DNA from: a virus
Lineage: Duplodnaviria > Caudoviricetes
Reading direction: 5' to 3' (one strand)
Length of the DNA: 38,494 nt
Virus record (IMG/VR): IMGVR_UViG_3300032103_000069
Coordinates: 1-38,494 of that record
In this document: positions 56 to 38,494 of the stretch, piece by piece
Layout: every line of letters starts with the position of its first letter
Position numbering within the stretch: position 1 is the stretch's first letter
Translations under genes and position numbers: made by a program
The notes under the pieces: model-generated
Databases searched by the model: none
What the model was told of the DNA's origin: nothing
The model's input: the letters and a program-made list of their open reading frames with translations, nothing else

Positions 56-91
56 TTAACTTGCACAATCCCCTAAAAATAGAGGAATAAA

Positions 92-2485: not shown

Positions 2486-2495
2486 TCGGATATGG

Positions 2496-2642: not shown

Positions 2643-2760
2643 GGCTAATTCCCGACGCAGGATTAGCGGGGGGCTTTGGATCATTCAAAAATCGGAGAGA
2701 TGAATTCACTACCGGATTACAAACCACAAAAATAGGTCAGAATAGGCCAGAAAGGTTGTG

Positions 2761-3764: not shown

Positions 3765-3765
3765 T
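3737..3765 (+). promoter_or_regulatory. Putative sigma70 late promoter
   Basis: TTGTAA (3737-3742), 17-bp spacer, TATAAT (3760-3765). It overlaps the end of the NusG-like gene and points into the terminase operon. Confidence 0.7.
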
Positions 3766-3863
3766 GACCCTGTGCTCCCATATAGGGAGCGGCGAGTTGC
3801 CGTGGCGCGCCACCCTCGCATTAGGCCGCAGGTCCAGATCCTCGGCCAGTTCGGAAGAATGGA

Positions 3864-9240: not shown

Positions 9241-9298
9241 CAGCGACCTAACGTCCTGACATAACGGGGGAAGCCCCCCTTCACTAGAGGACTATCAC

Positions 9299-9781: not shown

Positions 9782-9783
9782 CC

Positions 9784-10860: not shown

Positions 10861-10882
10861 CGGGGGTCGGATGACAGTATTT

Positions 10883-10908
10883 AGAACCCCCCGAATTCGG
10901 GGGGTTCT
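10883..10908 (+). terminator. Perfect 26-bp palindrome after the MCP gene; probable intrinsic terminator or attenuator
   Basis: agaaccccccgaattcggggggttct followed by only a short pyrimidine tail. Confidence 0.65.
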
Positions 10909-10925
10909 TCACACAGGGGGGAAAG

Positions 10926-11225
10926 ATGCCCAAGTTTAAGATTCTCGGCGGCTCGTGGACCCGTGGCACGGGACGCGGCCGGAAGACTTTTGGCAAAGGT
11001 GACGTCGTGGAGTGCTCGGAAGAGTCCGCCAAGGTGTTCGGCCAACAACTTCTGGAGCGGCTGCCCTCGGAGCCCGCAAAGCCCGCTTCTGAAGCTCTTG
11101 GCGCTGCCCCCGCTAGCGCCCCTACCCCTGCGCCCGCCAAGGCGTCAGAGGTCCCAACCAAAGCGTCAGAACCGACGACCAAGCCCGCCCCGGCGCCCAT
11201 GGCCCCCAAGCCCACCAAGAAGTAG
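10926..11225 (+). CDS. Hypothetical virion-associated protein with Pro/Ala/Lys-rich tail
   Basis: Small gene after MCP with a G.F.KGDVVE.....A N-terminal domain, common at this position; RBS GGGGGA. Confidence 0.65.
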   Translation: MPKFKILGGSWTRGTGRGRKTFGKGDVVECSEESAKVFGQQLLERLPSEPAKPASEALGAAPASAPTPAPAKASEVPTKASEPTTKPAPAPMAPKPTKK

Positions 11226-11232
11226 GTGACCC

Positions 11233-11595
11233 ATGCTTCCGATCACTGCGGCCGAGGTCCAGGCTCTTCTCAATACCCCCTTCTCTGAGCCTGACCTCTT
11301 GTCGTCAATCGAGGAGGCGGCACTCCTTCTCGGGGACTGTGGTAATCAGTATGACGACAGCCGACGCCGAGTGATCATCAAGTGGCTCGCTGGACACCTC
11401 CTGACCAGCCGCCTGTCCGCTGCTCGTGGCAACCTGAAATCCGAGTCAATTGACGGGATTTCTTACACGACAAATACGGCCCAAGTCGGGATGGGCCTGA
11501 AAGGGACGGCACTCGGGCAAATGGCCTTGTCGTTCGACAAGAACGGATGCCTCCAAGATTTGGATCGCCCGGCTGTCGTGTTCATGGCGATCTGA
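11233..11595 (+). CDS. Head-tail adaptor (connector) protein
   Basis: I.KWLAGH.L, SESI.G.S.T and L..T..GQ.A...D..GCL motifs typical of adaptors; position. Confidence 0.75.
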   Translation: MLPITAAEVQALLNTPFSEPDLLSSIEEAALLLGDCGNQYDDSRRRVIIKWLAGHLLTSRLSAARGNLKSESIDGISYTTNTAQVGMGLKGTALGQMALSFDKNGCLQDLDRPAVVFMAI

Positions 11596-12293
11596 TGCTT
11601 CCCCATTCTTTCCACCTGAATCAGACAATGACAAGATGGCCCCGAGTCGGGATGACGTTCGGGAGTCCGATCTTGTTCTCCCAGAACTCGCCGACGGGTG
11701 GCGTCAGGTGGATGCCAATTCGAAAGAACAAGTTCACAAGTGAAGAGGAGCGGATGTCCGCGCCGACGATGAGCGTGATCCTCGGGACGGCGGTCGCTGT
11801 CGGGGATGTCGTCGCGCGGGGGGCCTTTGTGGGGAATCCGTGGACTGCAGCCGAGCCCTACGAGGTAACCGAATATCGGGAAACGGACTCACTGATAGGA
11901 AGCGGAACCGTCAAGCGGGCGACATGCGCTCCGCTGTTCGGAGTCCTTCACCAAACAATCCTGGTCTATCGGATGGTTCGCACCGACACTGTTCGGTCGT
12001 TTACGGTCGCCCGTCACCCGACTGTGGCCTATAACGGACCTGCGTCCGTCCGAGTGCTGAACGCGAATCAAGTGTCCTCGGTGGGCTCCATGGTTCTTCA
12101 GCACGATTGCGTCGTGACAATCCCGATGGTCAATGGGCTGCTGTTCGCCGCCGAAGCATATGAGATAGACTGGAACGGCCCATATGGTCAGATGACTATC
12201 GAAACTTTGGGGCCGACCTATAGCGATCAGCAGTCCCCTTTCTGGCAGACTATCGCCGGAAAGATCCGGCGTCCGGCAGTGGGTTCGACGTGA
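11595..12293 (+). CDS. Head-closure (stopper) protein, double length, apparently two domains
   Basis: ATG overlaps the adaptor stop (TGATG); 232 aa, about twice the usual stopper size; two beta-rich halves each starting with an L.QT motif (LNQTMTRW / LHQTILVYR). Confidence 0.6.
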   Translation: MLPHSFHLNQTMTRWPRVGMTFGSPILFSQNSPTGGVRWMPIRKNKFTSEEERMSAPTMSVILGTAVAVGDVVARGAFVGNPWTAAEPYEVTEYRETDSLIGSGTVKRATCAPLFGVLHQTILVYRMVRTDTVRSFTVARHPTVAYNGPASVRVLNANQVSSVGSMVLQHDCVVTIPMVNGLLFAAEAYEIDWNGPYGQMTIETLGPTYSDQQSPFWQTIAGKIRRPAVGST

Positions 12294-12700
12294 GGCAGGT
12301 TCGCTTTGTCACAAGGCTGCCGGAAGTTAATGATACGATCAAGAAGGAGCTGATCAGTAGGCTTTTCGCTGCGACGCTTGTCTGGCGAGGCGCGGTTGTC
12401 CGTAAGATGCAAGGTCCGAAGTCTGGGAAGTTCTATCGGGTTCCAACAACCGGAGTCATGTATCAAGCGTCTGCTCCCGGCGAATCCCCCGCTATCCGCG
12501 AAGGTCTTCTTCGCGTCAGCTATGGCACCGACGTTGACAAGGAAGAACTGATCGGATTCATGGGCACCGATCTGGATTACGGGCTTTACCTGGAGCGTGG
12601 AACCGTTCACATGGAACCCCGTCCGGTTATCGAGCCTGCATTCATGGACGTCAAAGACCAGATTACCGATCTGATGAAGGGGCCGATCCGTGGAAACTGA
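12290..12700 (+). CDS. HK97 gp10-like tail completion/neck protein
   Basis: ASAPGESPA.R.G.L..S and YG.YLE.GT..M.PRP...PA motifs. Confidence 0.85.
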   Translation: MRQVRFVTRLPEVNDTIKKELISRLFAATLVWRGAVVRKMQGPKSGKFYRVPTTGVMYQASAPGESPAIREGLLRVSYGTDVDKEELIGFMGTDLDYGLYLERGTVHMEPRPVIEPAFMDVKDQITDLMKGPIRGN

Positions 12701-13088
12701 GTTCGCGACAGCCCTTGCGCTTCACCTGACCGCTGAGTTGGCCCCCCTGAAGCCTTTGGAGCGGTCTGCGGTGTATGCTCGCGGGGGGCCTGTCAACGGT
12801 CAGGTGACCTACGCGATCTCTTACGGAACGACCGGAGTTGTCAAAAGCAGGGTGATCTCCGTGACGGTGGATGTCGACATCTGGCATCAAGGTCCCGACT
12901 CTTCGCAGGCCGAGGATCTTGCGAGTCTTGTCGAACAATCCCTGATCGGCTGGTCCGTTAAGACTGTTCGGCAGGGGTCGGTTCGAATTAGCGGGTTTTC
13001 CAGGGCCTATATCAACGATCTGGAACCCAAGTTGTCTCACATCACAATGCGCTTCGATGGGCGCGCTTTCAGGAGGCTGGAACAGTGA
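12690..13088 (+). CDS. Tail terminator protein
   Basis: 132 aa just before the major tail gene; VDIW....S...A..LA..V...L pattern and C-terminal H..MRF. Confidence 0.7.
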   Translation: METEFATALALHLTAELAPLKPLERSAVYARGGPVNGQVTYAISYGTTGVVKSRVISVTVDVDIWHQGPDSSQAEDLASLVEQSLIGWSVKTVRQGSVRISGFSRAYINDLEPKLSHITMRFDGRAFRRLEQ

Positions 13089-26000: not shown

Positions 26001-27953
26001 TCAGTCCTCCATTCCCCAGTCAGCAAGGCTGTCCTCCGTCCAGAACTCACCCTCCTCGCCCCTCAGCATGGAATCTCCCCAGCTAGTGCCGAGCTCAACG
26101 TCACAGACAACTGGAACAGCCAGTTCTGTCGCGGAAGACATGATCTGGGCGATCTGCTCCGCTTGCCCCCTGTCGGAGACAGAGAACCCGAGCTCGTCGT
26201 GGACCGACACGAGGGGTGTGAATCCTGCCCGATGGCAATTGATCATCGCCACTTTCGTCATATCGGCGGCCGATCCTTGGATGACACGGTTCAGAGCCTT
26301 GTGCGTAAACCAGATCTGTCCGTTTGCCTGGCGAGGGAAATAGGCCCGTCGGCCAAGGAGTGTCTTCACATACCCCCGACGCTTGGCGGCTGTCTGAGCA
26401 GCTTCGGCGAGGGCCTTGTCCATGGGGGCAGCGGAGTGAAACCGTTCTAGGAGCTCTTCACCTTCCGGGCCTGCGACCATGATTTCCTTGCCCTTCCAGA
26501 ACTTAGTCGTAAAGGGAAGCCCGAGGCTTGCGCAAAGTGTCCCGCCCCCCATGCCGTAAAGAATTCCGAGTTTGATCGTCTTTGCGTCTTTTCGCTTCAG
26601 CCCACAGAGCTCGGCCGTCTGAAGATAGGCGTCGGCGCGCGGGTTTTCGTTCCAGACACGATACATTACCTCGGAGCCCGGAATGTTCGCCTTGACTCCG
26701 AAATGGGTTGCCAGTCGGGGCTCTTGGGACGAGTAGTCGATGGATGCCCACTGATCACCCTCCTCCGGCTCAAACGCCGACCGGACAAGGGGGCCGAGCT
26801 CGGGGTCTCTGGCTGGGACAACCTGGAGCGAAGGATTGGACCCCGAGAGCCTTCCCGAGACAGTTCCGCCATCGTCACCACGCAGAGCCCTGAGCTCGCC
26901 GTGAATTCGGCCGTTCACAAGGTGGCCCATGATCATACCCTCCACAAAGGTTGACCGGGCTTTGTTATACCGACGAAGAGTGAGAACTTGCTTCGCGATG
27001 TGTCCGGCTGTGTTGTCGCTCTTGGACAAGCCCTTAAGGAACACGTTGTCCACCGACTTTTCGCGCTTCTTCGGTGTCAGCGGGAAGTCCCCCTCTGAGA
27101 CTCCATGTTCCATCAGGGAGTCGATAATCGGGGTTGCGGCCCAGGGGTCGATCGTTCTGCCGCTCAGCGCTCTGAGCTTTTCGGCGGCAGTGTTCTCCAA
27201 CCTGAGGAAATGTTCCCGCATGGCCTGGACGCGTTGCTCGTTGATCCTGACTCCCCGCTTCCGCATGGCATAGAGAACCGGCACGAGATCGCGCTCCACC
27301 CGTGCCACGACCTCCAAATCGCTGTCCCTGATGTCGAATCGCTGGAACAGATAGAGCCAGAGGGTCCGAGCGGCGTCGTCGCGAGCATACTCTTCTACGA
27401 ACGCCGCCGGAAGTTTCCACAGTTGTTCTTTGACGTTCTTCAAGCCGAACTGTTCGGCGGCTTGGCGGAGCCTAGCCTCGCTCTTGGCGAGTCCTAGCCT
27501 GTCCCTGAGGAGGCTGTCCAACGAGTAGGAGCGTCGAGCATCATCCAACAGGGGGGCCTGAATCTGAACGTCATCCAGATCACACTCCCACTGGAAACCG
27601 TCCCATCTCGTCCAGCCGTAGTCGTAGATAATGTTCGCGCCGATAGCTGTTCTGCTCTTGTCTAGTAGCAGCGGTTGGACGATGGGCCGAACTTGGTCCA
27701 TCGGAAAATTCCCCCCACCTTCGTGACGGACGGGGAGGTACACGGAATGGAACCGGGGCTCGATCTCGTGGTTCAGTAGATCTTTTCGAGTCAGCGACTC
27801 CACGTCTCCGTCAAACCACGCAAGGGCATAGCCGACAGGATAGCCTGAGTCGTTGAATGCCCAGCCGGGGCCGAGCGTCTTGAGGTTCGTGTCCTTGGTC
27901 TCCAGGTCGTAGCCGAACAAGGGGCCTGTGATGGGCGATGGAAGGCGGATCAT
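26001..27953 (-). CDS. polA: Family A DNA polymerase with 3'-5' exonuclease
   Basis: Exo motifs YDLET, N..YD and YARDDA; GT.SGRLS...P.LQ; motif A DYSSQEPR; motif B RKDAKTIKLGILYG; N..IQGSAAD; motif C VHDEL. Confidence 0.95.
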   Translation of the reverse strand: MIRLPSPITGPLFGYDLETKDTNLKTLGPGWAFNDSGYPVGYALAWFDGDVESLTRKDLLNHEIEPRFHSVYLPVRHEGGGNFPMDQVRPIVQPLLLDKSRTAIGANIIYDYGWTRWDGFQWECDLDDVQIQAPLLDDARRSYSLDSLLRDRLGLAKSEARLRQAAEQFGLKNVKEQLWKLPAAFVEEYARDDAARTLWLYLFQRFDIRDSDLEVVARVERDLVPVLYAMRKRGVRINEQRVQAMREHFLRLENTAAEKLRALSGRTIDPWAATPIIDSLMEHGVSEGDFPLTPKKREKSVDNVFLKGLSKSDNTAGHIAKQVLTLRRYNKARSTFVEGMIMGHLVNGRIHGELRALRGDDGGTVSGRLSGSNPSLQVVPARDPELGPLVRSAFEPEEGDQWASIDYSSQEPRLATHFGVKANIPGSEVMYRVWNENPRADAYLQTAELCGLKRKDAKTIKLGILYGMGGGTLCASLGLPFTTKFWKGKEIMVAGPEGEELLERFHSAAPMDKALAEAAQTAAKRRGYVKTLLGRRAYFPRQANGQIWFTHKALNRVIQGSAADMTKVAMINCHRAGFTPLVSVHDELGFSVSDRGQAEQIAQIMSSATELAVPVVCDVELGTSWGDSMLRGEEGEFWTEDSLADWGMED

Positions 27954-28297
27954 CGGATAGCTTTCGACGCGCTGATCTTCATGTCGCCCTCCGCGACGCG
28001 GCGCCGATGCTCGGCTCTGATCAGAAGAAGGTAGCCGATCAGGTCGTCCAGGTCGTCACCAATGTCTCCATCGTTGGATTCCTGGGCGGCGAAGATGTCG
28101 TATCCCTGGCGGGCGGTGATGGACTCGATGCGATCCCACTTGCGGCACATCATCATGAACGCGCCGACTCCGCCCCGCTTCTGCCACGACCCCTCATAGT
28201 GCCGCTCCTTTTCCATGAGTGTTTCCACGATATTCTTGGCCACTTCTGAAAGGAAGCCAAGCCACGGGAACCGGGTGATGAGTTCTTCGTTGTCCAT
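27950..28297 (-). CDS. Nucleotide-modification-associated MazG-like protein (Nmad1/DUF1599-like)
   Basis: K...Y..SW..RG..G.F....RKWDR and D.L.DLIGY.LL all-alpha NTP-pyrophosphatase-like pattern; lies in the modification operon. Confidence 0.7.
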   Translation of the reverse strand: MDNEELITRFPWLGFLSEVAKNIVETLMEKERHYEGSWQKRGGVGAFMMMCRKWDRIESITARQGYDIFAAQESNDGDIGDDLDDLIGYLLLIRAEHRRRVAEGDMKISASKAIR

Positions 28298-28298
28298 G

Positions 28299-28829
28299 TC
28301 AGGGGTCCTTGCTCTGTAGGAAGATGGAACTGGAGAAGTGAGCGGGCATCGGAGACGTGGTGAACGACCGGGGGGCTCTGGCCAGCATCTTCTTCATCGG
28401 CTCTTCACAGCCCTTCCACCGCTCCAGATAAATCATCACTCCGAGCCTCTGAACCTGATATCGACACCAGAGAGCCGCTTCCAGAAGATCAGCCCAGCGG
28501 AGCCACCAGAGCTCCTCCTCGGTGAGTTTCCGTGTGGACAAAATGCCCATCTGATCCTCGGCGAGCTCGGTGGCGCTATCCATTGCCGATACCAGTTGAG
28601 GAAATCGACGTTTGGACTGGAACGATAGATCGGAGGTCAGATGTTCTGGTAGATCGTGCTCCAGAGCCGCGCGCAGGAGGCTGATTGACGGGTTCGGGTG
28701 AAACTCTCCAATGATCCAGGCGACCCCCCAGCTATGCGCCGCGATTGTCTGAGGATAGGGGCCGGGCTCCTCGTGATACCGAGTCACCTGCGAGATCTGA
28801 ATCACTCGGTCGTTGAACTTGTAGAACAT
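28299..28829 (-). CDS. HD-domain 5'-deoxynucleotidase (YfbR-like)
   Basis: V.RYH, QT.A.HSW.V, AAL.HDL.E..T.D and ADLLE motifs. Confidence 0.85.
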   Translation of the reverse strand: MFYKFNDRVIQISQVTRYHEEPGPYPQTIAAHSWGVAWIIGEFHPNPSISLLRAALEHDLPEHLTSDLSFQSKRRFPQLVSAMDSATELAEDQMGILSTRKLTEEELWWLRWADLLEAALWCRYQVQRLGVMIYLERWKGCEEPMKKMLARAPRSFTTSPMPAHFSSSIFLQSKDP

Positions 28830-28868
28830 GATTAATTCCTTTCTGGGTGGGGGCAGGGTAGCGGGGCG

Positions 28869-29888
28869 CTAGAATGGAGGCAAGAGAGGTTCACCCCGTG
28901 CAATCCGAATCCTGTCGATCCACTCCCGACACGCTTTTTCCCATGCCCGATCACGGAGACAATTGAGGTTATCACACATCTCATTGACGTCTCCGCTTTT
29001 GAATGCGCGGTGGATCCGCGCCATGCGCTTCCCAACATAATCATAGAACGGTGTCAGAGGGTCCCATCGCCTTGCCGTCGGGTCTTCGATCATGCGCTGG
29101 AGGTCACTGTGAAGCTCCCAAGGTTCGGACTCTTCCAGCAAACGGGGGCCGAGTGCCATTCCGGGATCTAGACCGTAATGATTGACCGGGTTGGCCCCGG
29201 CCATGTTCCACATCTTCTCGGCGACAGGGATTCCCGGATACAGATGCAGATCGTCGCTAACCTGCCGATAGACGCCGACAGAGACATTCAGGGCTCCGGC
29301 CATGTATTCCTGGAGATAGCTGAAATGGACGACGTTCGCCCCATAGGCCCCCCAGATCATGTCGTTGGAGCGGTTCAGGACTGTCATATCCAATCCCCCA
29401 CCGCGTATTTTGAACATGACCTGAGTATTGCAGGGCAGGTCTTTGGAGAACTGATTTTTGAGGTCCGCCCACGGGTCCCAGATGCCAACCACGGCTCGGC
29501 GGCTGCTCGGGTCATTCTTCAAGAGCTGTATGACCTCGCCGAGCTGATCGTAGCCAAAGTGGAACCTCCAGCGGTGTCCGTAGGCCCCGTTCAAAGTCTT
29601 GCCGTCGTCCGAGAACTGGTCCATGTTTTTGGCGAATTGTAGGAGGAACTCAACCTCTCCGGAGCCCGACAGCATCCAAAGGCTCTCGAAGAAGTGAAGG
29701 AACGGATTGCAGTTCCTCGTCGAATCAAAGATGACCCGCTCCAGCGGACGCTCGTAGATCGTCGTGACGGGCTCCCGGAACCGATACACGGTTCCGTTGC
29801 GGGATTGGGCCTCTTCGTGGTCGAGCTTGAGCCGCAGGAGGGCGGTGAACAACGCATCTTCAGCGTTGCGGGCACGGATCGTGATCAT
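28869..29888 (-). CDS. Thymidylate synthase-superfamily dUMP hydroxymethylase
   Basis: R..NPF.H..E..W, FSDDG....GAYG.RW, DQL, SRRAV...WD, catalytic DLPCN, RSND..WG..GAN and Y.Q.SD.LHLY. Asn at the specificity position implies dUMP rather than dCMP. Start moved to ATG 29888 (ATGA overlap). Confidence 0.85.
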   Translation of the reverse strand: MITIRARNAEDALFTALLRLKLDHEEAQSRNGTVYRFREPVTTIYERPLERVIFDSTRNCNPFLHFFESLWMLSGSGEVEFLLQFAKNMDQFSDDGKTLNGAYGHRWRFHFGYDQLGEVIQLLKNDPSSRRAVVGIWDPWADLKNQFSKDLPCNTQVMFKIRGGGLDMTVLNRSNDMIWGAYGANVVHFSYLQEYMAGALNVSVGVYRQVSDDLHLYPGIPVAEKMWNMAGANPVNHYGLDPGMALGPRLLEESEPWELHSDLQRMIEDPTARRWDPLTPFYDYVGKRMARIHRAFKSGDVNEMCDNLNCLRDRAWEKACREWIDRIRIARGEPLLPPF

Positions 29889-30736
29889 GGAAACTTCCTC
29901 CCTGTGTGTCCGCCCTGTTGGATCCGGACATATTTGAACGTCTCGCAGTTCACGTTGCTCGCGACATCGTGAAGTGTGAGCTTGCGATCTGCGACGAGGT
30001 CCTCGGGCAGGGCTTCGAGCTGAGCTCTGCCGACCCGAAGATACTCCTCTTCTGACATGCGGGCCTCGGTGTCGCGACCAAGGGTCAGGTTCATACCACG
30101 GACAGCTCCCGGTCCGAAGGGTGCCCATGTGAGGTGATCAGTAGCATCACGGAGGACGTGAGTATAGGCCAAGTCGGCCGCGATCTGTCCGGCCATGAAG
30201 TCTTTGTATCCGACCTCTTTCCTGAGTGTTTTGACGTATTCCTCTCGACTCTTGGCCACCCGTGGAAACGTCGTGCGATGGATGATGGAGCAGACATACG
30301 CCACTTTCCCCGGGAAGATGAACGGCTCCACAAGCTGGCCGGGGGGAGCTCCGACAAGATACGCCGAGTTGAAGGATCCAACCCCCCGGTTCATCCGGCC
30401 CTGACAGATTCGGTAGACAAGCTCCAGGTTGACGGAGGTCTCGGTGATGGCCCCTGCTGACACGAGGTCGTGGAGAACGCTCGGAAGGTTAAAGAACCGG
30501 GCGACTGCCAGCGCTCGGCCCAGCTCAGCCGGATCTGCACCAGCCTCGTCCATAGGATCTCGGACCAGTTCCTTGACGACTCGAGTGACGGCATCGTCTT
30601 CCCGGGACACGTTGCAAAACCGATGTTTCTGAATGATGGGGTCCGATGTCCATGGGGGCGTAAGACCTGCTTCGCGATTGCGGCGAGCCTCCTCTCGGTG
30701 GATGGACCAGTGTAGGAACGACCAGTTCTGGATCAT
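29885..30736 (-). CDS. aGPT-Pplase1-type helical (HhH-glycosylase-like) thymidine hypermodification protein
   Basis: RE..R....AG..PPWT.DPI....RFCNV.REDD..T, R.FN.P, F.AGQI.ADL.Y, GPGA.RG.N and CE..KY.R motifs; start moved to ATG 30736. Confidence 0.82.
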   Translation of the reverse strand: MIQNWSFLHWSIHREEARRNREAGLTPPWTSDPIIQKHRFCNVSREDDAVTRVVKELVRDPMDEAGADPAELGRALAVARFFNLPSVLHDLVSAGAITETSVNLELVYRICQGRMNRGVGSFNSAYLVGAPPGQLVEPFIFPGKVAYVCSIIHRTTFPRVAKSREEYVKTLRKEVGYKDFMAGQIAADLAYTHVLRDATDHLTWAPFGPGAVRGMNLTLGRDTEARMSEEEYLRVGRAQLEALPEDLVADRKLTLHDVASNVNCETFKYVRIQQGGHTGRKFP

Positions 30737-31356
30737 GTGTTCTCCTCTATGAGCTCTCGGACGAGGGCTTCGGCCTGTTCGGAAGACCCACTCCAGTAGA
30801 GGCGGATCCCGGGCACGTTGTCCAGCAAGAGCTTCTGGTGAACGCGGCAAACAGAGTGCCACTTGTCGGTGACAGTCTCGCGAATCTTGTCGGTTGCCCC
30901 CCGGCCGGAGCGGGCTGCGACTCGTCGGACACACTCTTCCACGTCAGGCATCACGAACACCTTGTGGGTCGTGCGACCGGTCTTCTTGTAGAGGTCGGCA
31001 GCGAGATCACGATATCGAACGTGGATCCCAGAGATCGTGACGCCCTCGAAGAGGACGACTGGTCGGTCAGAGTGAGCTCCGGTAACGATTGCGTCACAAA
31101 TGGCGTCATGCGCCCCTTTCCAAGAGAACTCGTCTGCCCCCCCGCAGGTTGCCCGGTATTCTCCGAGAGCGATAACCCTACCCCCTTGCCCGACCGCCCC
31201 GACCAGCTCTCGGCGTTGGAGCCTCTGTGGGTCGGCCCGGGTCGGCTTCTCCACATGGGTGACCGCCATTACTTCGTGAGCGATGATCTCGCCCAGAACG
31301 TTCCGAACGATCGTGGACTTGCCCGACCCGAACGTTCCTCTGATGTTGATGAGCAC
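30733..31356 (-). CDS. P-loop kinase, 5-hydroxymethyluracil DNA kinase (5-HMUDK)-like
   Basis: INIRGTFGSGKST Walker A; LG.Y...CGG.D, VLFEG and C..RV..R motifs; GGAAGG RBS; ATGA-coupled to the aGPT-Pplase gene. Confidence 0.8.
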   Translation of the reverse strand: MLINIRGTFGSGKSTIVRNVLGEIIAHEVMAVTHVEKPTRADPQRLQRRELVGAVGQGGRVIALGEYRATCGGADEFSWKGAHDAICDAIVTGAHSDRPVVLFEGVTISGIHVRYRDLAADLYKKTGRTTHKVFVMPDVEECVRRVAARSGRGATDKIRETVTDKWHSVCRVHQKLLLDNVPGIRLYWSGSSEQAEALVRELIEENT

Positions 31357-31452: not shown

Positions 31453-31932
31453 CTAGGCCACAAGCGTCTGATTCCTACCCAAGACGAAGGTGACGAGATC
31501 GGCCTTCAGGCTGCGCCCGGCGCTCCAGTCGTGAACTTCGCCGTCCTTGACAGCGAGGACGTGGCCACACGTCCAGAGGAGGCAGGGGGGTAGTCCGCTC
31601 CAGGCTTGCGGGAACCGGATGACTTGTCTGGGGGTGACGAAGGTTTTGGACTGCTTCGCCCTTGGATACCGAAGTTTGACAAACTCCTCAGAACTCATGT
31701 TAACCGGGTTGAGATCCAGCTCCTTGAGGGCCTCTATCATCATGTGGCGGTAGACCCCCCGATCTGGGCGGTATCCGTGACGGAAGAGGAGGGTTCTGGA
31801 ATCGTCGTAAGACAGGCTGGCCACGACGCTTAGGGCGACGACCCCGCAATCCTTGGTGTCTTCGCAATTGATGAATCTCCGACGCTCACAGATGGCTGCG
31901 AAGAGTCCGGTTGTGGGAGTAGACTTTCTCAT
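31453..31932 (-). CDS. Hypothetical protein with papain/C39-like Cys-His-Asp pattern
   Basis: DCGVVALS, GHVLAV.DG.V.DW; AAAGGA RBS. Confidence 0.6.
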   Translation of the reverse strand: MRKSTPTTGLFAAICERRRFINCEDTKDCGVVALSVVASLSYDDSRTLLFRHGYRPDRGVYRHMMIEALKELDLNPVNMSSEEFVKLRYPRAKQSKTFVTPRQVIRFPQAWSGLPPCLLWTCGHVLAVKDGEVHDWSAGRSLKADLVTFVLGRNQTLVA

Positions 31933-32624: not shown

Positions 32625-33566
32625 TCAAAAGGCTCCGCCGCCGTCGTGCTTTCCGACGACCTCTCCGGAGCTGCGCTCTTCCACCTCAGCCTTGACAACC
32701 CCGGCCCGGATCAAGTCGTAGAAAGCCCGAGCCGCCGAGTAGACCTCATACCCGACATCGGGAATGGCAATCGTCGGGACGCCCTGCTCCACCTTCCAGT
32801 TGAAGAAGTCCCCCCGGTCGTTGGCCTCGGGCACGGTTCGGAGCTTCCACGACTGATAGAAACGAGCCGGGTTGACCATCCGCCCCGTGCTCGGGTTCTT
32901 GATTTTCACGTTGCGGATCGTCGTATTCCAGGCCCGACTGATCTTGGCCTTGGAGCCACTCATGCTCAGAACCGCCTGTTCGTAGGAACCATCGGGGCGG
33001 ATCACGATGACAAAGTGTTCCGGCGTGACGACGATCTCGTTGCCGTTCGGCAGGACGTAGCCGCCATCCTCGGACCGCTGGCACTGACCCAGGATAGCCT
33101 CTTCGTGATTCGCATTCACCAGTCCGCCGCCCTTTTCGCGCGGGATCCACTCGATATGGCGACGGACATAGGCCACGTTGACGATCGTCAGCGGCTGAGT
33201 GTAGAGCTCTTTCGTGGCCGAGTTGAAGATGGACCCTTCCTCCGCCCCCTCGATGAACTCGGCCTTTTGTTTCTTGATCTCTGGCGACAGGGCCTGGGCG
33301 ACCTTGAGGCGCGGGATGAGAACGTCTTCCTGCCCGACGTTCTCGTTGCCAAGCCCGGCGTCGGCGCAGATGTCGCCAACCAGAGCGGCAAGGGCTGTCT
33401 GCTCCGCGACCACCACCAGCCCGGGCTCTTCAGCCTGCGGCTTGGTCGGCGTCGGCACGGAAGGCTTTTTCGCCACCAGCTTGGGCTCTTCAGCCTGCGG
33501 CTTGGTCGGCGTCGGCACGGAAGGCTTTTTCGCCACATGGGGTTGGATCGTCTTTGTGTTCGTCAT
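32625..33566 (-). CDS. Putative single-stranded DNA-binding/recombination protein
   Basis: G.ENV...D..IPRLK..Q.LSPE, GA..G.IFN..T, EW.PR..GGG.V, M..SK.K.SR.WN and N..G.FF.W motifs typical of the SSB-like gene in polA phages; C-terminal Phe. Confidence 0.65.
   Translation of the reverse strand: MTNTKTIQPHVAKKPSVPTPTKPQAEEPKLVAKKPSVPTPTKPQAEEPGLVVVAEQTALAALVGDICADAGLGNENVGQEDVLIPRLKVAQALSPEIKKQKAEFIEGAEEGSIFNSATKELYTQPLTIVNVAYVRRHIEWIPREKGGGLVNANHEEAILGQCQRSEDGGYVLPNGNEIVVTPEHFVIVIRPDGSYEQAVLSMSGSKAKISRAWNTTIRNVKIKNPSTGRMVNPARFYQSWKLRTVPEANDRGDFFNWKVEQGVPTIAIPDVGYEVYSAARAFYDLIRAGVVKAEVEERSSGEVVGKHDGGGAF
33413..33536. repeat. 60-bp tandem duplication in the 5' part of the SSB-like gene
   Basis: 33423-33476 is identical to 33483-33536 and encodes VAKKPSVPTPTKPQAEEP twice. 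Confidence 0.95.
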
Positions 33567-33649
33567 GCTGGTCTCCGTTAGGTTGTCAGTTGTTCTGGCT
33601 TCTTCAGCCTCGCCGCGCTAGGTGGCGGACCACCAGCCCCCGAGGGGGA

Positions 33650-34189
33650 TCACTTGATCTTGATGAAACGGCGATGGAACAGGCCGAGAGCCTTCAGGTC
33701 CAGGGGGATACCCTGCTCCAGCATCTCGCGAGCCCATTTTTGATAAGTGGAACCGTGGATGGACTCTTCCACGACCGGATTCAGGCCGACGCTCTCCAGC
33801 AAGGTCGCGGCAGTTCGAGCCTGCTCGTCCTGCCCCTTGGGGAAGGCGACGGAAACCTCCGTCTTCATGAGGGCTTCGCCACCATGTTCCTTGAGGATCT
33901 GCATCGCGACGGCGCGATCCCCCTCGTTCTTCGGAAGCCCCCCGTAGAGCTTCTCCTCGACCGTCACCATCCGGTTGCCGACCCTGAACCCGGTGACGCC
34001 GACCTCGTCGAATAGTTCTGGGAACTGGCGCTCTTCCAGATCTCGGAGCTCGTCTTCCGCCACCAGGAGCTCGGCCCTTAGCCGCTCCACGACGTCGACC
34101 CGTTCCTGGTGACGAGCGAATAGTCTCTGAAGTCGGTTGAGGCCCGCCTCGGAAGGTGAGTCTGGGATGTCGTCGAAGATGTCAATCAT
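33650..34189 (-). CDS. Conserved phage replication-module protein
   Basis: Coiled coil, then PELF.E.G...F..G, L...G...L.K..V.V.F.KG.D and IH..T...W.RE..E.G motifs commonly found upstream of the SSB-like gene; AAAGGA RBS. Confidence 0.75.
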   Translation of the reverse strand: MIDIFDDIPDSPSEAGLNRLQRLFARHQERVDVVERLRAELLVAEDELRDLEERQFPELFDEVGVTGFRVGNRMVTVEEKLYGGLPKNEGDRAVAMQILKEHGGEALMKTEVSVAFPKGQDEQARTAATLLESVGLNPVVEESIHGSTYQKWAREMLEQGIPLDLKALGLFHRRFIKIK

Positions 34190-34200
34190 GGCGGTTCCTT

Positions 34201-34551
34201 TCAGGGCTTGATGACGGAGGGGACATAGAATCCGGCGCCGGGGCGACGATCGCCTTCGGAGGTTCGCTCTCGTTCCCAGCGAAGGATTTTGATGCCTTGA
34301 CCGGGAAACTTAAACTGGAGGGACTGGCCGACCATCATCGAGCCAACCCAATCGCCGCCGAGGAAGAGCAGGTAGTCCTCGGTCGGGTCGAAATTGACGA
34401 GGGCCTTGTCGATTTGCCACCGAGCGATTCCGGGGCGAACACTCGGCTGGAATCTGGCGTCGTCAAAGATGAAGTGGATGGTCCCATATCGATGAGCGGA
34501 TGAGAGGTCTTTGTCTCGATACGGAGGTTGGATCACAAAAACCTTGGGCAT
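34201..34551 (-). CDS. Conserved phage hypothetical protein (small alpha/beta fold)
   Basis: KVFVIQ....D.S.A.RYG.I, F....DYLL..G and L.W.R......Y.P motifs; AAAGGA RBS. Confidence 0.75.
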   Translation of the reverse strand: MPKVFVIQPPYRDKDLSSAHRYGTIHFIFDDARFQPSVRPGIARWQIDKALVNFDPTEDYLLFLGGDWVGSMMVGQSLQFKFPGQGIKILRWERERTSEGDRRPGAGFYVPSVIKP

Positions 34552-34571
34552 CTGGTGTCCTTTCTGCCGCC

Positions 34572-34600
34572 AGTGTATACGGCACCCGCTTAGGTAGCAA
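34572..34600 (-). promoter_or_regulatory. Putative sigma70 early/middle promoter
   Basis: Minus strand TTGCTA, 17-bp spacer, TACACT, just upstream of the RBS of 34551. Confidence 0.55.
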
Positions 34601-34871
34601 GCGCCCTCTGGAGCATAATCAGATCACCTTCCGACATGGTGTAGTAAAACCACGGCTGATCCGGGGCTTCCCGACGACGAGCAATCAGTTCTCCATTGGC
34701 AACGGTGATCGTCGGCCGACCGGGGTTGGAGAGTTCTATGTACTCCAGATCCCCCGCCCAATCGCTGGGATTTTCGTGAAGCCAATCCACGAACGCATCG
34801 GTGACCTCGTCTTCCGGATCCATCGGGAGGCGGTAGACTTCGCAAAGCGGGTGAGCGATCAGAGGTTTCAT
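34590..34871 (-). CDS. Hypothetical protein
   Basis: ATGA overlap with the upstream gene; 93 aa. Confidence 0.6.
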   Translation of the reverse strand: MKPLIAHPLCEVYRLPMDPEDEVTDAFVDWLHENPSDWAGDLEYIELSNPGRPTITVANGELIARRREAPDQPWFYYTMSEGDLIMLQRALAT

Positions 34872-35149
34872 TTGTGGTTTTTTTCAGAGAATCCGCTGGT
34901 GATGAGGCGGTTGTAGAGGTTAGCTGCATCTTTACGTGAATACACTCCATCGACCTCGTGTGTGGCAAGACGATTCACAGTCCTGACGCGAATCATGTGG
35001 GATTGGCTGGTTCGGTAGAAATGGGCCATGAGCCTGAACCCGTTGTCCTCGGCCTCCAGAACTGCCGACGGAAAAGGGTCACACTCGATCATATGTCGGC
35101 TGGCAAGCCTTGTCGCTTGCCAGCAACTCAGAGCCTCCGACGGTGTCAT
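34868..35149 (-). CDS. Hypothetical protein
   Basis: Start moved to ATG 35149, 1 nt after the stop of the small membrane ORF; ATGA-coupled downstream. Confidence 0.55.
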   Translation of the reverse strand: MTPSEALSCWQATRLASRHMIECDPFPSAVLEAEDNGFRLMAHFYRTSQSHMIRVRTVNRLATHEVDGVYSRKDAANLYNRLITSGFSEKNHK

Positions 35150-35150
35150 T

Positions 35151-35303
35151 TCACCAGCGCCCCCAGTCACCCCGATGAGTCGGTGGAGCAGGCTCGTTGC
35201 GAAGATGTTCGCGCCGACGGACAAAGAACAAATAGACCGTCACGATCGCGAAAAGGAGGAGCAGAACCCCCCCAAGTGTCAGCGCTGCGAGAAAATAGTT
35301 CAT
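35151..35303 (-). CDS. Small single-pass membrane protein
   Basis: MNYFLAALTLGGVLLLLFAIVTVYLFFV-RRR (TM helix plus positive-inside cluster); AAAGGA RBS. Confidence 0.6.
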   Translation of the reverse strand: MNYFLAALTLGGVLLLLFAIVTVYLFFVRRREHLRNEPAPPTHRGDWGRW

Positions 35304-35335
35304 GCCTTGTGTCCTTTCACTGCTTTCAGAGGATA

Positions 35336-35355
35336 GCCCCGGCCGAAGCCGGGGC
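35336..35355 (-). terminator. cUUCGg tetraloop hairpin after the DUF932 gene
   Basis: Minus strand gccccggc-ttcg-gccggggc; no U-tract, so it may be a stabiliser or processing site. Confidence 0.55.
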
Positions 35356-35361
35356 GGATGA

Positions 35362-36297
35362 TCAGGCGGCGAGCTCGAGGAGTCGAGCCTCCACCTCCAG
35401 CTTCTGACGATGAGAATCACCAGAAAACACCGACTTGAGTCGACCCGCTCCTGGCTTGCCCCGAACGTGATCCGAATAGTGCGTCACCCCGTTCAGGATG
35501 CCGTAGGCAGTCTCCTCCGGCTCGCGCAAGGCGCCGGGGGCCTCGGCGATAGACCGCAGGATGCCCATGACGATCGATGAGTTCTCTGCGACCTTGACGT
35601 CAGGAGCGTAGACAGGGATCAGCACCTTGGTAACAGCATCCTCCACCGACAGCTTGAGGGCGTCCAGTGTCCGCCAGCGGCGCTCGGCAGCGGCGAGGTC
35701 CTCATGTGCAGCTTCCACCGCCTGACGAGCCGCCTCCACATCGAACGGAGTCAGGTGGTTTTGGCGATATCTGACCGCCATCTCCCGGTCGGCAGCAGCC
35801 ATCGTGTTCGCGCAGACGACCCGAACAGTCGTAGTGCTGACCGTGATCGACTTGCCGACTTGATGCGGCGAGGTGAGGAGGAGGTATCCGTTGATCTGAT
35901 CCCCGCGACGAACCTGGAACCCGTGGTTCAGCTTGGCCAGGCCCCAGACGATCTTCCCGTCGCGCAGGGCGCCGATAGTCTCCAGGCTGGCGCCTCCGGC
36001 CCGAACGTAACGATCCATGAAGTTGACGACATCACGGTTCTGCATCGGCTTCCAGCGCTCGCTGGCGACCGTCAGGATCGAACCATCCGTCCCCCGGACG
36101 AGGGCGAAGCGGTTCGGTACTTGGATCAGACCATCCGGCCGCTTGACGTAGGTCGGCTCCATGGAGACGGACCAGTCGAGGTTCGCGGCTTTCAGCCACT
36201 CTTCGGTGGACTGGTCAGGCTGCATCTGAACACCGATCCCGTGCCACGGGACTTCACCAGCATAGGCAATCTGCTCATTGATGATTTCGTGCGCCAT
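35362..36297 (-). CDS. DUF932-family protein
   Basis: MAHE......Y.GE.PWHG.G, A.LDW.V, QN....F, ET.G.L..GK.VW.LA and T.VRVVC.NT motifs; start moved to ATG 36297. Confidence 0.85.
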   Translation of the reverse strand: MAHEIINEQIAYAGEVPWHGIGVQMQPDQSTEEWLKAANLDWSVSMEPTYVKRPDGLIQVPNRFALVRGTDGSILTVASERWKPMQNRDVVNFMDRYVRAGGASLETIGALRDGKIVWGLAKLNHGFQVRRGDQINGYLLLTSPHQVGKSITVSTTTVRVVCANTMAAADREMAVRYRQNHLTPFDVEAARQAVEAAHEDLAAAERRWRTLDALKLSVEDAVTKVLIPVYAPDVKVAENSSIVMGILRSIAEAPGALREPEETAYGILNGVTHYSDHVRGKPGAGRLKSVFSGDSHRQKLEVEARLLELAA

Positions 36298-36346
36298 CCT
36301 AGGCTTCTTTAGTTGGGGGCAGGCGGCTGTTGCCTGCCCATGGAGT

Positions 36347-36375
36347 AGTGTAGCATACCTTTCGGTGCGGGGCAA
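36347..36375 (-). promoter_or_regulatory. Putative sigma70 early promoter
   Basis: Minus strand TTGCCC, 17-bp spacer, tgc-TACACT; followed by a leader hairpin at 36317-36339. Confidence 0.6.
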
Positions 36376-36392
36376 GAACCATTTTGTCTGAT

Positions 36393-36611
36393 CTACAGAT
36401 TTTCCAGCGGGACGAGGGAGAACCCTGCAAACGGGCGATCGAGGATCAGCCCGACTGTTCGTTCACAGCCGTCGGTATCGAGCAGAGTCACACGAAACTT
36501 GTCCAAGCCAGCGTTCGCCGATAAGCGGACAACCGTCAGTCCGGTGACTGTCTCTGTCCAGTCCATCGCCTTAAACATGGCGACCACTTCTGATCTCAGA
36601 AGGTCAATCAT
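36393..36611 (-). CDS. Hypothetical protein
   Basis: 72 aa; overlaps the end of the glycosylase-like gene. Confidence 0.5.
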   Translation of the reverse strand: MIDLLRSEVVAMFKAMDWTETVTGLTVVRLSANAGLDKFRVTLLDTDGCERTVGLILDRPFAGFSLVPLENL

Positions 36612-37098
36612 CGGCGCTCACCCAGGCCGGGGGGCTCCTTCGTTTCCAGGTGAGCACCATGTCGCGAGCCTTTATTTCACGATAGTATCTACGATAGGAA
36701 GTGACGTAGTCGGCCCCCCGCAGGCGGTCTGGCATGACCTGAGGGGGCGGAGTGTCCCCTTCCAGGGGGAACCCATGGAGGACGTATGGCATCGCACAGA
36801 CGAGCTCGGGCAGGAGGCTGGAGCTAGCATGAGCCCTGTCGTAGCGATACTCGTATTCATAGCCCAGAGCGATGAACAGGTTGAGCGTCCGTTGCCAGTT
36901 GTCAGCGCTGGTTGTCGCCCAGATCACACATGGATGGTTCGTGTGAGTGGGGGAGTAGAACGGTCTTCCCCGGACTCCTAGCCGGTCCAAGGCGGAGCAG
37001 AGGATCTGGGCTGTTTCCAGCGTCATCTTGACAACATGTTTGTCACAGTGGTATTCGGCCGCTAGGCGAGGGCAGCGGTCCAACCAAAACAGGTTCAT
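36604..37098 (-). CDS. Pyrimidine-dimer DNA glycosylase/endonuclease V-like protein
   Basis: MN.F.LD..P..AA..HCDKHVVKM.LE.AQ.L, Y..TH.NHPC..W, EY..RY...H and P..MP......V.SYR.YY...K....W..R..P.W motifs. Confidence 0.85.
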   Translation of the reverse strand: MNLFWLDRCPRLAAEYHCDKHVVKMTLETAQILCSALDRLGVRGRPFYSPTHTNHPCVIWATTSADNWQRTLNLFIALGYEYEYRYDRAHASSSLLPELVCAMPYVLHGFPLEGDTPPPQVMPDRLRGADYVTSYRRYYREIKARDMVLTWKRRSPPAWVSADD

Positions 37099-37208
37099 CG
37101 GGACTTCTGACGCAATGGGGAGACTTCTGAAGAGGGTTGCCCGCCCTTGGGCAGGGGCAGGCTAGGCCGGGCAGCGGGGGTCTTCAGAAGGTCGGATTGC
37201 GGGGTCAT
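37095..37208 (-). CDS. Possible 37-aa peptide (not in ORF track)
   Basis: MTPQSDLLKTPAARPSLPLPKGGQPSSEVSPLRQKSR; ATGA overlaps at both ends. Confidence 0.35.
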   Translation of the reverse strand: MTPQSDLLKTPAARPSLPLPKGGQPSSEVSPLRQKSR

Positions 37209-37366
37209 AGCAGCACGTTCGCTTGTCCGTTGAGCCAGATCCAGATCTGCGTTTTTGGCTGACCGTTGACAATGACCTTCATGGCGAACGAGTCGAACGA
37301 CGACCCCGGATCGTGGATCGCTCGCAGGAACACGAACTGTTCTCGAGTGATAGACAGGGTGATCAT
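37205..37366 (-). CDS. Small hypothetical protein, 53 aa (not in ORF track)
   Basis: AAAGGA RBS then MITLSITREQFVFLRAIHDPGSSFDSFAMKVIVNGQPKTQIWIWLNGQANVLL. Confidence 0.6.
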   Translation of the reverse strand: MITLSITREQFVFLRAIHDPGSSFDSFAMKVIVNGQPKTQIWIWLNGQANVLL

Positions 37367-37379
37367 GGTGTGAATCCTT

Positions 37380-37688
37380 TCAGGCTGGGACTTTGTTGTC
37401 CGCGGACTCAGTGTAAGTCAGACGAGGGCGCCTGACAAGAAGAATCAGTGGGCGACCGGAGGGTTTTTTCTTCGTCTTGGGGGCACGCTTCCCCTGTTCG
37501 TTGATGTCCTCGACACATGTGATGTTCGGAACAACAAAGGAAACCGTGAACTCTGATGTCAAGCCATAAAGCCCGACAATCCACGTCATGAGCATCACGG
37601 CTCCCTGAGGGTTCGCTTCGGAAGGAACCTTCTGAAAAGTCGTGCAAGCCGGACAGTTGCAGCGGCAAATGGCCCGGCGGCAGTTCAC
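37380..37688 (-). CDS. Hypothetical protein (start uncertain)
   Basis: GTGA overlap with the upstream gene; N-terminal C...C.C.C..C cluster; fills the gap in the early operon. Confidence 0.35.
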   Translation of the reverse strand: MNCRRAICRCNCPACTTFQKVPSEANPQGAVMLMTWIVGLYGLTSEFTVSFVVPNITCVEDINEQGKRAPKTKKKPSGRPLILLVRRPRLTYTESADNKVPA

Positions 37689-38251
37689 ACCCCCAGCTCC
37701 GGGTCGATCGGATGGGCCGTAGCCGCCAGCAAAGAGGCAGCAGCCGACCTGACAGTGACCGGGTATTCGGCCGGAGCCGTGCGATACATGGAGCCTGCGC
37801 GCAAATCCTCAATCGTGATCAGGGCCTTGTGTCGATGGTCCAGAGTCTCCCATTCGGCACGAATGCGGCGGGCGAGGGTGTCGTAGAGGTCATCCGAAAT
37901 CAGTGCGACGTTGTGGATGTGATAGGTGTAGGACGCCATCAAAAACCACGAGATCAAACCGTTCGAGGTCTTATCAATCACGACTCGACACATGCCGTCC
38001 ATCGGCAGAGGCATCGGCTCTCGGCTGGCGCGACCGGGGGGCGACGGGGGGCGCAGGCTCCTCGGCGGCTTGACCTTGGTCGGTTTGGGGTCGCTCTGGA
38101 TGCGCGGCTGGCGCGAGACGTCGGAGCTCCCCAGCCGATAGATTCGCTCCAAATGCCGGAGGTCTCTGTCGGTCTTCACTTCCTTGGCCTCCAGGAACGC
38201 CCGGTATTCGGCGCGTTCATCTGGGGTCATTTGAGTCACTGCTGTTTTCAT
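37685..38251 (-). CDS. Protein with stand-alone NAD-dependent DNA ligase subdomain Ia-like (Nlig-Ia) C-terminal domain
   Basis: L.ASY.Y......LISD..YD.LA..I...W motif; AAAGGAGG RBS; start moved to ATG 38251. Confidence 0.6.
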   Translation of the reverse strand: MKTAVTQMTPDERAEYRAFLEAKEVKTDRDLRHLERIYRLGSSDVSRQPRIQSDPKPTKVKPPRSLRPPSPPGRASREPMPLPMDGMCRVVIDKTSNGLISWFLMASYTYHIHNVALISDDLYDTLARRIRAEWETLDHRHKALITIEDLRAGSMYRTAPAEYPVTVRSAAASLLAATAHPIDPELGV

Positions 38252-38277
38252 CGGTTGCCTCCTTTCAGACAAGTGAC

Positions 38278-38307
38278 AGGGTAGCACGAGCGGGGAGCTC
38301 AGGGCAA
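38278..38307 (-). promoter_or_regulatory. Putative sigma70 early promoter
   Basis: Minus strand TTGCCC, 18-bp spacer, tgc-TACCCT; same design as the promoter at 36347-36375. Confidence 0.55.
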
Positions 38308-38439
38308 GAGCCAAGTCCCCCCACAATCGCGGCCCCCACAGAGGGGCTGCTCGTCGAACTGGTCGAGGCGATCCGGATCCGCGCTTCAGCCGCTCTATCG
38401 GAGATCAGAGGTCTGGAATTAGTTCAAATAAGTCGCTGC

Positions 38440-38494
38440 AAGATTAGAAACAAACATACCACTTGTGGTCACGCGCGGCTGGCACTAGGGTGGT
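38440..38494. repeat. 55-bp direct terminal repeat (copy 2)
   Basis: Identical to bases 1-55. Confidence 0.95.

Follow-up and report, generated by a model that had tools for sequence, protein, structure and literature searches.

A predicted 5-hydroxymethyluracil kinase cassette without a detectable clade-2 transferase in an uncultured phage lineage

The IMG/VR virus record IMGVR_UViG_3300032103_000069 (38,494 nt; its full length is called the window here) represents an uncultured phage whose host is not known. It carries a cassette of five minus-strand genes that run into the gene for a family A DNA polymerase and that encode a predicted kinase for 5-hydroxymethyluracil (5-hmU), a clade-1 aGPT-Pplase, a predicted hydroxymethylase of deoxyuridine monophosphate (dUMP), an HD-domain protein and a small helical protein. 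Sequence searches and gene inventory support the absence from this genome of a clade-2 transferase and of the tailoring enzymes of thymidine hypermodification. The best explanation that we can offer, with a probability of roughly 0.40, is that the 5-phosphomethyl-deoxyuridine (5-PmdU) made by the kinase persists as the final mark and that the clade-1 protein converts the remaining 5-hmU to thymine. The odds assigned to this explanation and to its rivals are our judgement. Papers are cited by PMC number.

The cassette in a closed genome

Family assignments come from Pfam and PHROGs scans of the 66 open reading frames (ORFs) of the window, and homologues were matched by searching the window by tblastn with annotated proteins of M6, Pam3, AIIMS-Plu-RaNi, TM26 and Neferthena. 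The genes are the following:

31356-30733, minus strand: 5-hmU DNA kinase, 207 aa, GTG start, P-loop
30736-29885, minus strand: clade-1 aGPT-Pplase (HMUDK_hel) of a divergent subfamily, 283 aa; Pfam 99.4 bits, cut-off 25
29888-28869, minus strand: thymidylate-synthase homologue, predicted dUMP hydroxymethylase, 339 aa; Thymidylat_synt 77.4 bits
28829-28299, minus strand: HD-domain protein (YfbR-like), 176 aa; 23.1 bits, E 7e-5, cut-off of 25.9 not reached
28297-27950, minus strand: DUF1599/Nmad1-like small helical protein, 115 aa; by likeness to Pam3 gp54 and predicted structure
27953-26001, minus strand: family A DNA polymerase with 3'-5' exonuclease, overlapping the last cassette gene; Pfam DNA_pol_A 160 bits

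An earlier sequence-only reading of this DNA had described five packed genes leading into the polymerase with three ATGA overlaps, and its coordinates are exact (30733-30736, 29885-29888 and 27950-27953); the remaining two intergenic gaps measure 39 and 1 bp. All five genes have a GC content at third codon positions of 0.67-0.77, and no promoter or terminator signal above chance was found. The family labels given at that time hold for the clade-1 protein and the synthase; those of the HD protein and the kinase fall below the Pfam cut-offs, and Nmad1 is only a lead.

The genome had also been taken as complete, which is borne out despite an IMG/VR completeness estimate of 70%. The record has a terminal repeat of 55 bp that is found nowhere else, and single unitigs span the end-to-start junction in two runs: one of 17,796 bases in run X1 (possibly the source), covering 33507-38494 and 1-12863, and one of 9,572 bases in run X2 from another study, covering 35514-38494 and 1-6646. 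The phage genome is therefore a closed circle of 38,439 bp. Another record (G004) is 99.75% identical to the window and colinear over 25.4 kb.

Synthesis of 5-hmU and its phosphorylation in DNA, as originally proposed, are both supported by homology. The synthase shares 44% identity with M6 gp58 and 33% with the dUMP hydroxymethylase of SP10 (gp188). It possesses C153, R173, S174, D176 and N185, of which C153 and N185, the latter presumably the dUMP-type asparagine, are invariant in all eight aligned sequences. Its best PDB match is a CMP hydroxymethylase, ahead of every thymidylate synthase, and both tryptophans of the WDEW stretch of thymidylate synthases, which have a role in hydride transfer, are missing from it. 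With its catalytic cysteine, an asparagine of the dUMP type and a grouping among hydroxymethylases, the synthase makes incorporation of 5-hmU into DNA likely.

The kinase reaches 22 bits (E 1.3e-4) with Pfam HMUDK_HMUD1, below the cut-off of 27 bits, and its close homologues P0037 and P0039 carry the HMUDK domain. By tblastn it matches M6 gp54 (E 2e-11) and Pam3 gp49 (E 4e-14), and in alignment with M6 gp54 and SP10 gp186N it has the Walker A, G-x-Y...C-G-G-x-D, E-G and C-x-x-R motifs. In the kinase tree the window is represented by its identical copy L006, which retains 23 of the 28 conserved family columns; the clade of this lineage (support 0.957) is sister to the group with M6 gp54 (0.982) and nests among verified DNA kinases. 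Because the kinase nests with M6 gp54 and SP10 gp186N, phosphorylation of 5-hmU at the DNA level is likely. No solved structure matched the kinase or clade-1 alignments by sequence.

Search for a clade-2 transferase

The clade-1 protein belongs to a subfamily that is marked by an insertion of one residue before its conserved cysteine. A protein search gave 34 matches; when a fragment of the protein of the window itself is set aside, 33 remain, with identities of 38-83%. In IMG/VR the insertion subfamily is found on five contigs, and the clade-1 and kinase alignments return the same five. These reduce to two other complete genomes, G002 (55,028 bp; G001 is 100% identical to it) and G003 (44,878 bp), both with terminal repeats and both with the same five genes in the same order ahead of the polymerase. 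Scanning IMG/VR with the polymerase, with the small gene or with the kinase alignment added no member to the lineage.

ADDT (PF18724), the Pfam family of clade 2, has no match among the 66 window ORFs, the 283-aa protein included. Such family negatives carry little weight alone, given that the whole-genome ADDT search, like an M6-seeded clade-2 profile, misses the real ADDT gene in G018, a control genome with kinase and clade 2. A broader profile of 57 sequences from both known clade-2 subgroups recovers the G018 gene at E 5e-90, and its best E-value in six-frame ORFs of the window, G002 and G003 is 0.24. When a profile built from one subgroup was tested on the held-out other, it detected 1 of 25 and 2 of 32 members. 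The clade-2 motif E-[TS]-x-x-C is absent from window ORFs of at least 180 aa, and the search for aGPT-Pplase3 was negative in all five records. Among the tailoring functions, profiles for pyridoxal phosphate (PLP), radical S-adenosylmethionine (SAM), flavin adenine dinucleotide (FAD) and acetyltransferase enzymes had no match in the window; the radical-SAM profile does pick up SP10 gp185. By tblastn, M6 gp51-53, Pam3 gp43/46/47, the FAD proteins, Nmad5 and the M6 dCMP deaminase have no match in the window at E<=0.1, and for the acetyltransferase and deaminase of RaNi the only matches were short, at chance level and in structural regions; no M6, Pam3, RaNi or TM26 protein of the clade-2 or tailoring type had a significant tblastn match. 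A set of 141 ORFs from outside the structural regions of G002 and G003 contains, by Pfam, no ADDT, PLP, radical-SAM, FAD, acetyltransferase or glycosyltransferase gene. Within these detection limits, profile and tblastn searches of the window agree with the initial statement that no clade-2, PLP, radical-SAM, FAD or acetyltransferase gene is recognisable, and the ORF-wide profile searches, a check named beforehand, found no clade-2 or tailoring gene. A candidate for a tailoring enzyme, the ORF at 31453-31932 upstream of the kinase, was rejected, being peptidase-C39-like at best and absent from G002 and G003.

It is chiefly the gene inventory, stronger than the profile negatives, that supports the absence of a transferase. 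ORFs without assigned function in the early region of the window are at most 213 aa long, compared to ~260-340 aa for clade-2 proteins, and the larger ones lie in the head-tail module, where they were judged by eye to be structural by position and composition. The genes common to the window, G002 and G003 are those for replication and packaging, Pam3 gp32-34-like genes and the cassette, and no function-unassigned gene of clade-2 size is shared by the three. Together with the sequence searches, and within their detection limits, this supports the view that the window genome has neither a clade-2 transferase nor tailoring enzymes.

How exceptional this absence is can be seen in a co-occurrence sample of 171 loci (122 distinct, 55 with at least 4 kb on both sides), which includes the window and excludes five cultured references. 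These loci are the best-scoring matches to the window clade-1 protein rather than a random draw, many are related to each other, and G002 falls outside the count for its short flank. A kinase is present in 40 of the 55 loci, and 36 of these 40 have clade 2 in the fetched stretch. The other four are the window, G003, L057 and L169, the contigs of the last two ending 8.7 and 5.4 kb downstream. The missing transferase, and not the gene block, is thus the rare feature of this lineage, and the insertion subfamily coincides with the absence of clade 2 in three of three complete genomes.

Several other genes in these loci deserve mention. In many uncultured phages (L075:4056-5045 and ~30 related loci), a second clade-2 subgroup (motif E-S-x-x-C) lies upstream of the kinase; it is nearly invisible to M6-seeded profiles. 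An unassigned 276-aa ORF (L169:11337-12167) lies between kinase and synthase in a locus without detectable clade 2 on a contig of a Dehalococcoidia metagenome-assembled genome. G003 has two genes that are not in the window: one resembling phosphoadenosine phosphosulfate reductase (L175:11271-11738) and a 261-aa ORF near the kinase (L175:1725-2510) with a similar N-terminal motif by eye and no Pfam match.

Fate of the phosphorylated base and role of the clade-1 protein

In the explanation that we prefer, the DNA would be replicated with 5-hmU replacing thymine. From the orthologues we infer synthesis of 5-hmdUMP, depletion of dTTP/dTMP by the HD and DUF1599-like proteins and phosphorylation by the kinase of a subset of the 5-hmU bases in DNA. 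With no clade-2 transferase found, 5-PmdU would stay in virion DNA as the final anti-restriction mark, and on this reading nothing in the genome would remove the phosphate. The clade-1 protein would turn the remaining 5-hmU into ordinary thymine, conceivably by addition of Cys264 to C6, loss of the 5-substituent and reduction of the exocyclic methylene by a hydride donor. Persistence of the phosphate and the thymine-forming role of clade 1, with this chemistry, are purely inferential, and the combined claim, that the wild lineage packages 5-phosphomethyluracil as its natural end product and that clade 1 is the missing enzyme from 5-hmU to thymine inside DNA, must be called doubtful.

Phosphorylation alone may already protect. 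It blocks many restriction enzymes with TG/TC sites, the contexts in which a characterised kinase phosphorylates, whereas 5-hmU DNA resists only ~8% (PMC7653180), and in the phiW-14 mutant am37, whose synthesis of putrescinylthymine is defective, the phosphorylated base builds up in the DNA (PMC5977210). The window kinase, which keeps the family motifs and groups with verified DNA kinases, would be expected to create the same base. As to the fate of unphosphorylated bases, virions of the known systems hold T and the modified base and no 5-hmU (PMC8989533), and leftover 5-hmU becomes T by a mechanism that is stated as unknown (PMC5977210, PMC8989533).

The sequence-only reading had treated clade 1 as the known phosphate-displacing enzyme and clade 2 as an add-on, a premise that the literature does not support. 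The measured transfers in M6, ViI, PaMx11 and phiW-14 (gp109) are all by clade 2 (PMC8989533), as is that of phage 15599, by its clade-2 DADT (PMC13458397, whose main text never uses the term Pplase1). M6 gp54 and gp51 suffice and gp55 (clade 1) is dispensable; a lysate run with kinase and PaMx11 gp50 was performed, and the supplement legend (S20) names only gp46 as giving product; full-length SP10 gp186, a kinase-clade-1 fusion, is reported only as yielding the phosphorylated nucleotide (all PMC8989533). Clade 1 is thus not the transferase where it was tested, in view of the sufficiency of M6 gp54 and gp51 and of the S20 legend. By Pfam, M6 gp51 is ADDT (clade 2) and gp55 HMUDK_hel (clade 1), the reverse of Table 3 of PMC5889632.

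The window clade-1 protein belongs to a divergent branch of its family. The HMUDK_hel (PF18723) match spans residues 7-273, and its best phage matches include phiW-14 gp72 and M6 gp55 (30% identity, E 6e-28). The insertion subfamily forms a single clade (support 1.0 with 157 sequences; bootstrap 100 with 12/42 sequences), with C41, E46, D48, S260, N261, C264 and E265 unchanged across 34 of 34 sequences. Of the usual C-terminal motif of clade 1, D-x-Q/E-N/H-x-x-C-E-x-x-K, the window retains Cys-Glu-x-x-Lys, with the one-residue insertion and a Ser at -4; the sequence D-V-x-S-N-V/M-N/F-C-E is common to all 37 members and exceeds the usual D-x-Q-N-x-L-C-E by one residue. Metal binding and catalysis in clade 2 depend on E-T-x-x-C, in which the Glu four residues before the Cys is essential (PMC13458397). 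The corresponding stretch of the window protein reads S-N-V-N-C, so that the Cys is kept and the essential Glu appears to be Ser, consistent with a function other than transfer; of 140 other clade-1 proteins examined, 120 have a motif that could be scored, and 87 of these carry Gln at this position. In a library clustered at 50% identity the clade-1 profile matches 4,305 clusters in total, ten of them at 288 bits or more and the next at 217. A search aimed at longer fused forms of the insertion subfamily found none, which is weak evidence. Elsewhere (P0119, P0165, P0130, P0137), clade-1 domains are joined in one protein with a Toprim primase, with a cpYpsA SLOG domain and, by weak matches, with an HhH-GPD glycosylase domain.

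The distribution of clade 1 is informative as well. The synthase is found in 46 of the 55 clade-1 loci, in ten of them with neither kinase nor clade 2, and five loci have none of the three; a kinase is lacking from 15 of these 55 loci, as it is from the complete genome G008, which also has clade 1. Clade 1 tracks the hydroxymethylase rather than the kinase, and its initially assumed tie to phosphate displacement is weakened by the ten kinase-less loci in which it stands beside the hydroxymethylase. In phage 15599 it adjoins the synthase, with clade 2 elsewhere in the genome. A TAGT glycosyltransferase is present in four of ten kinase-less loci or genomes examined and also in phage Neferthena, and phiRSL1 has annotated glycosyltransferases. 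Since clade 1 is common to kinase/clade-2 systems and to kinase-less glycosyltransferase systems, a shared substrate, 5-hmU, and its conversion to T are suggested. G008 itself (L186:1619-2997, L021) is a complete 69-kb phage that combines clade 1 and hydroxymethylase with a TAGT glycosyltransferase and an FkbM methyltransferase and has no kinase or clade 2.

Several observations weigh against a phosphorylated end product with clade 1 as a thymine-forming enzyme. The literature searched, with subscription articles and primary papers of the 1980s outside its scope, contains no reported activity for any clade-1 protein and no report of a natural phage packaging 5-PmdU, and the passages of PMC5977210 covered do not state which gene is hit in am37. 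In phiW-14, putrescinylthymine is needed for packaging of full-length DNA (PMC5977210), by analogy with which the extra negative charge of phosphorylated DNA may be costly. The alteration of clade 1 at its catalytic helix falls in just the lineage without clade 2 and so speaks for a changed function. Profile-profile alignment of clades 1 and 2 failed, and the residue correspondence used above rests on motif spacing. Given the low cross-subgroup detection in the held-out test, a third divergent clade-2 subgroup could escape the profiles. Finally, avoidance of TG/TC palindromes is a signature of only one of the three lineage genomes (permutation p 0.006 in the window, 0.70 in G002 and 0.12 in G003) and does not appear in the positive control G018 either (0.55). 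GTAC is nearly missing from the window (3 versus 60 expected) and absent from G002 (0 versus 109), suggesting a host restriction enzyme for GTAC, and all five genomes tested strongly avoid 6-mer palindromes made of G and C only.

The most serious rival, which we regard as unlikely though still live, is that the divergent clade-1 protein took over transfer, so that kinase and clade 1 together add an amine, amino acid or other nucleophile to 5-PmdU, possibly giving a new base. It would fit the invariant Cys-Glu, the coincidence of the insertion subfamily with the lack of clade 2, the identical five contigs returned by kinase and clade-1 subfamily scans, and the precedent of SP10, which makes glutamylthymine without clade 2 (PMC5889632, Table 3) and so counts against our preferred explanation. 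The predicted structure (mean predicted local distance difference test score 93.7) has the clade-2 transferase PaMx11 gp46 (8Z2M) as its top structural match (Z 9.5, root-mean-square deviation 4.4, 219 aligned), yet a queuine salvage enzyme and an 8-oxoG glycosylase come within 1 Z of it, a tie with other helix-hairpin-helix proteins, and Foldseek against the PDB gave no match at E<=0.001. Transfer has been reported for no clade-1 protein, the clade-2 metal-binding Glu is absent here, and in SP10 the neighbour of the kinase, gp185, which has no counterpart in the window, could be the glutamyl transferase. The one-step modification first envisaged for this phage had an amine adduct as its default; that part is now this rival, and its alternative of a stable 5-phosphomethyl-U has become the best reading.

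A less probable scheme would have kinase and clade 1 act as a two-step deoxygenation from 5-hmU via 5-PmdU to T, mature DNA containing T or T and 5-hmU and protection being transient. Borohydride trapping of the clade-2 intermediate on 5-PmdU does yield thymidine (PMC8989533), and the two genes are closely linked, overlapping by ATGA in the window and fused in SP10. The near-absence of GTAC implies that at least some T sites remain cleavable, but RsaI also cuts 5-hmU DNA (PMC7653180), so this avoidance does not discriminate. The many clade-1 loci without kinase, G008 among them, and the accumulation of phosphorylated base in am37 (PMC5977210) speak against this scheme.

A hidden transferase, be it of a third clade-2 subgroup, of unrelated fold or from the host, that completes a conventional hypermodification is improbable: the missed G018 gene and the poor held-out sensitivity leave room for it, yet the 57-sequence profile that recovers this gene so clearly stays at E 0.24 in the three lineage genomes, which share no unassigned gene of the right size. 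Most improbable is the lack of any modification at DNA level, through a synthase that makes dTMP or a kinase acting on 5-hmdUMP in the pool, for which the absence of a dCMP deaminase and of a separate deoxynucleoside monophosphate kinase from the window and the sub-threshold kinase score might be cited, against the likeness of the synthase to M6 gp58, its missing WDEW tryptophans, the grouping of the kinase with M6 gp54 and SP10 gp186N, and kinase-less relatives which suggest that host kinases can supply the triphosphate.

Companion genes and comparison with known systems

The remaining genes of the cassette would serve the nucleotide pool. The HD protein, 29% identical to M6 gp59 by tblastn, is likely a nucleotide-pool hydrolase, as judged from homology. 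The 115-aa protein is 53% identical to Pam3 gp54 over 57 aa and has no Pfam match at E<=1 (Nmad1/DUF1599, PF07659, included); its predicted structure resembles DUF1599-containing Atlas clusters with template modelling scores of 0.65-0.74, under the bar for naming a family, so that a pool-sanitising pyrophosphatase is a possible function. It occupies the slot of DUF3310 in other loci, and as the two never co-occur in 87 synthase-bearing loci (9 versus 55), they seem to fill the same role. A relation of the 15599 dTTPase to the HD or DUF1599-like gene is unsupported, as that enzyme is a dUTPase_2. The polymerase is 36% identical to M6 gp62 (tblastn). Outside the cassette, the window contains a 60-bp tandem duplication within a Pam3 gp34-like gene (33413-33536), an imperfect inverted repeat of 147 bp after the primase gene (2496-2642) and a pyrimidine-dimer-glycosylase-like gene (36604-37098; weak Pfam match, phrog_624), a homologue of which lies ~700 bp upstream of the kinase in G003 and is absent from G002.

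The cassette joins two questions, namely the role of the widespread clade-1 aGPT-Pplases and the route from leftover 5-hmU to thymine (PMC5977210). The lineage amounts to a natural deletion of the clade-2 gene, where nearly all sampled kinase-bearing phages pair kinase and clade 2, and any of three outcomes would be new enzymology, whether a phosphorylated end product, transferases of a new class or a route to thymine at the DNA level. The cassette had been described as a clean two-gene system; as a two-gene test case provided by nature it is indeed useful, and cultured phages offer clade-1 proteins for assay as well.

The cassette is not a new operon, since the five-gene order is the known M6/Pam3 core: the Pseudomonas phages M6/YuA and PaMx11 and the cyanophage Pam3 (PMC8989533) share the order kinase, clade 1, dUMP hydroxymethylase, HD, small Nmad-type gene and Pol A, with orthologous proteins 23-44% identical to those of the window. 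Unlike in these phages, the module upstream (clade-2 transferase and the PLP, radical-SAM, FAD and acetyltransferase enzymes), Nmad5 and dCMP deaminase were not found in the window, and its clade-1 protein belongs to a separate subfamily with the insertion before the cysteine. The Bacillus phage SP10 and relatives such as Nachito (alpha-glutamylthymine) are similar to the window in having kinase, clade 1 and hydroxymethylase without detectable clade 2, SP10 thus being the cultured precedent for a clade-2-free system. SP10 differs by its kinase-clade-1 fusion, its 896-aa radical-SAM-like neighbour gp185, a second kinase and a genome of 144 kb, whereas the window has kinase and clade 1 as separate genes and no gp185-like gene. 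In gp185 (L190:9652-12342), the N-terminal ~250 aa look thymidylate-synthase-like with a cysteine motif by eye, a reading with no Pfam or PDB support, ahead of the radical-SAM-like C-terminus.

The diamine systems of phiW-14 (Delftia) and SH-Ab 15599 (Acinetobacter) resemble the window in combining kinase and clade 1 with no tailoring enzymes and use a single post-kinase step, yet there the transfer is by clade 2 (gp109, DADT; PMC13458397), which the window lacks. A phosphorylated base as end point, with resistance at TG/TC sites, is known from kinase-treated SP8 DNA (PMC7653180) and from phiW-14 am37 (PMC5977210), both laboratory states, unlike the wild-type lineage of the window, and PMC11955845 describes a different, dioxygenase-based system. 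By their defining genes, the window cassette stands outside the M6, ViI, PaMx11, phiW-14 and SP10 pathways; it is a reduced form of a known system that recurs in all three complete genomes of the lineage and is seldom seen among related cassettes.

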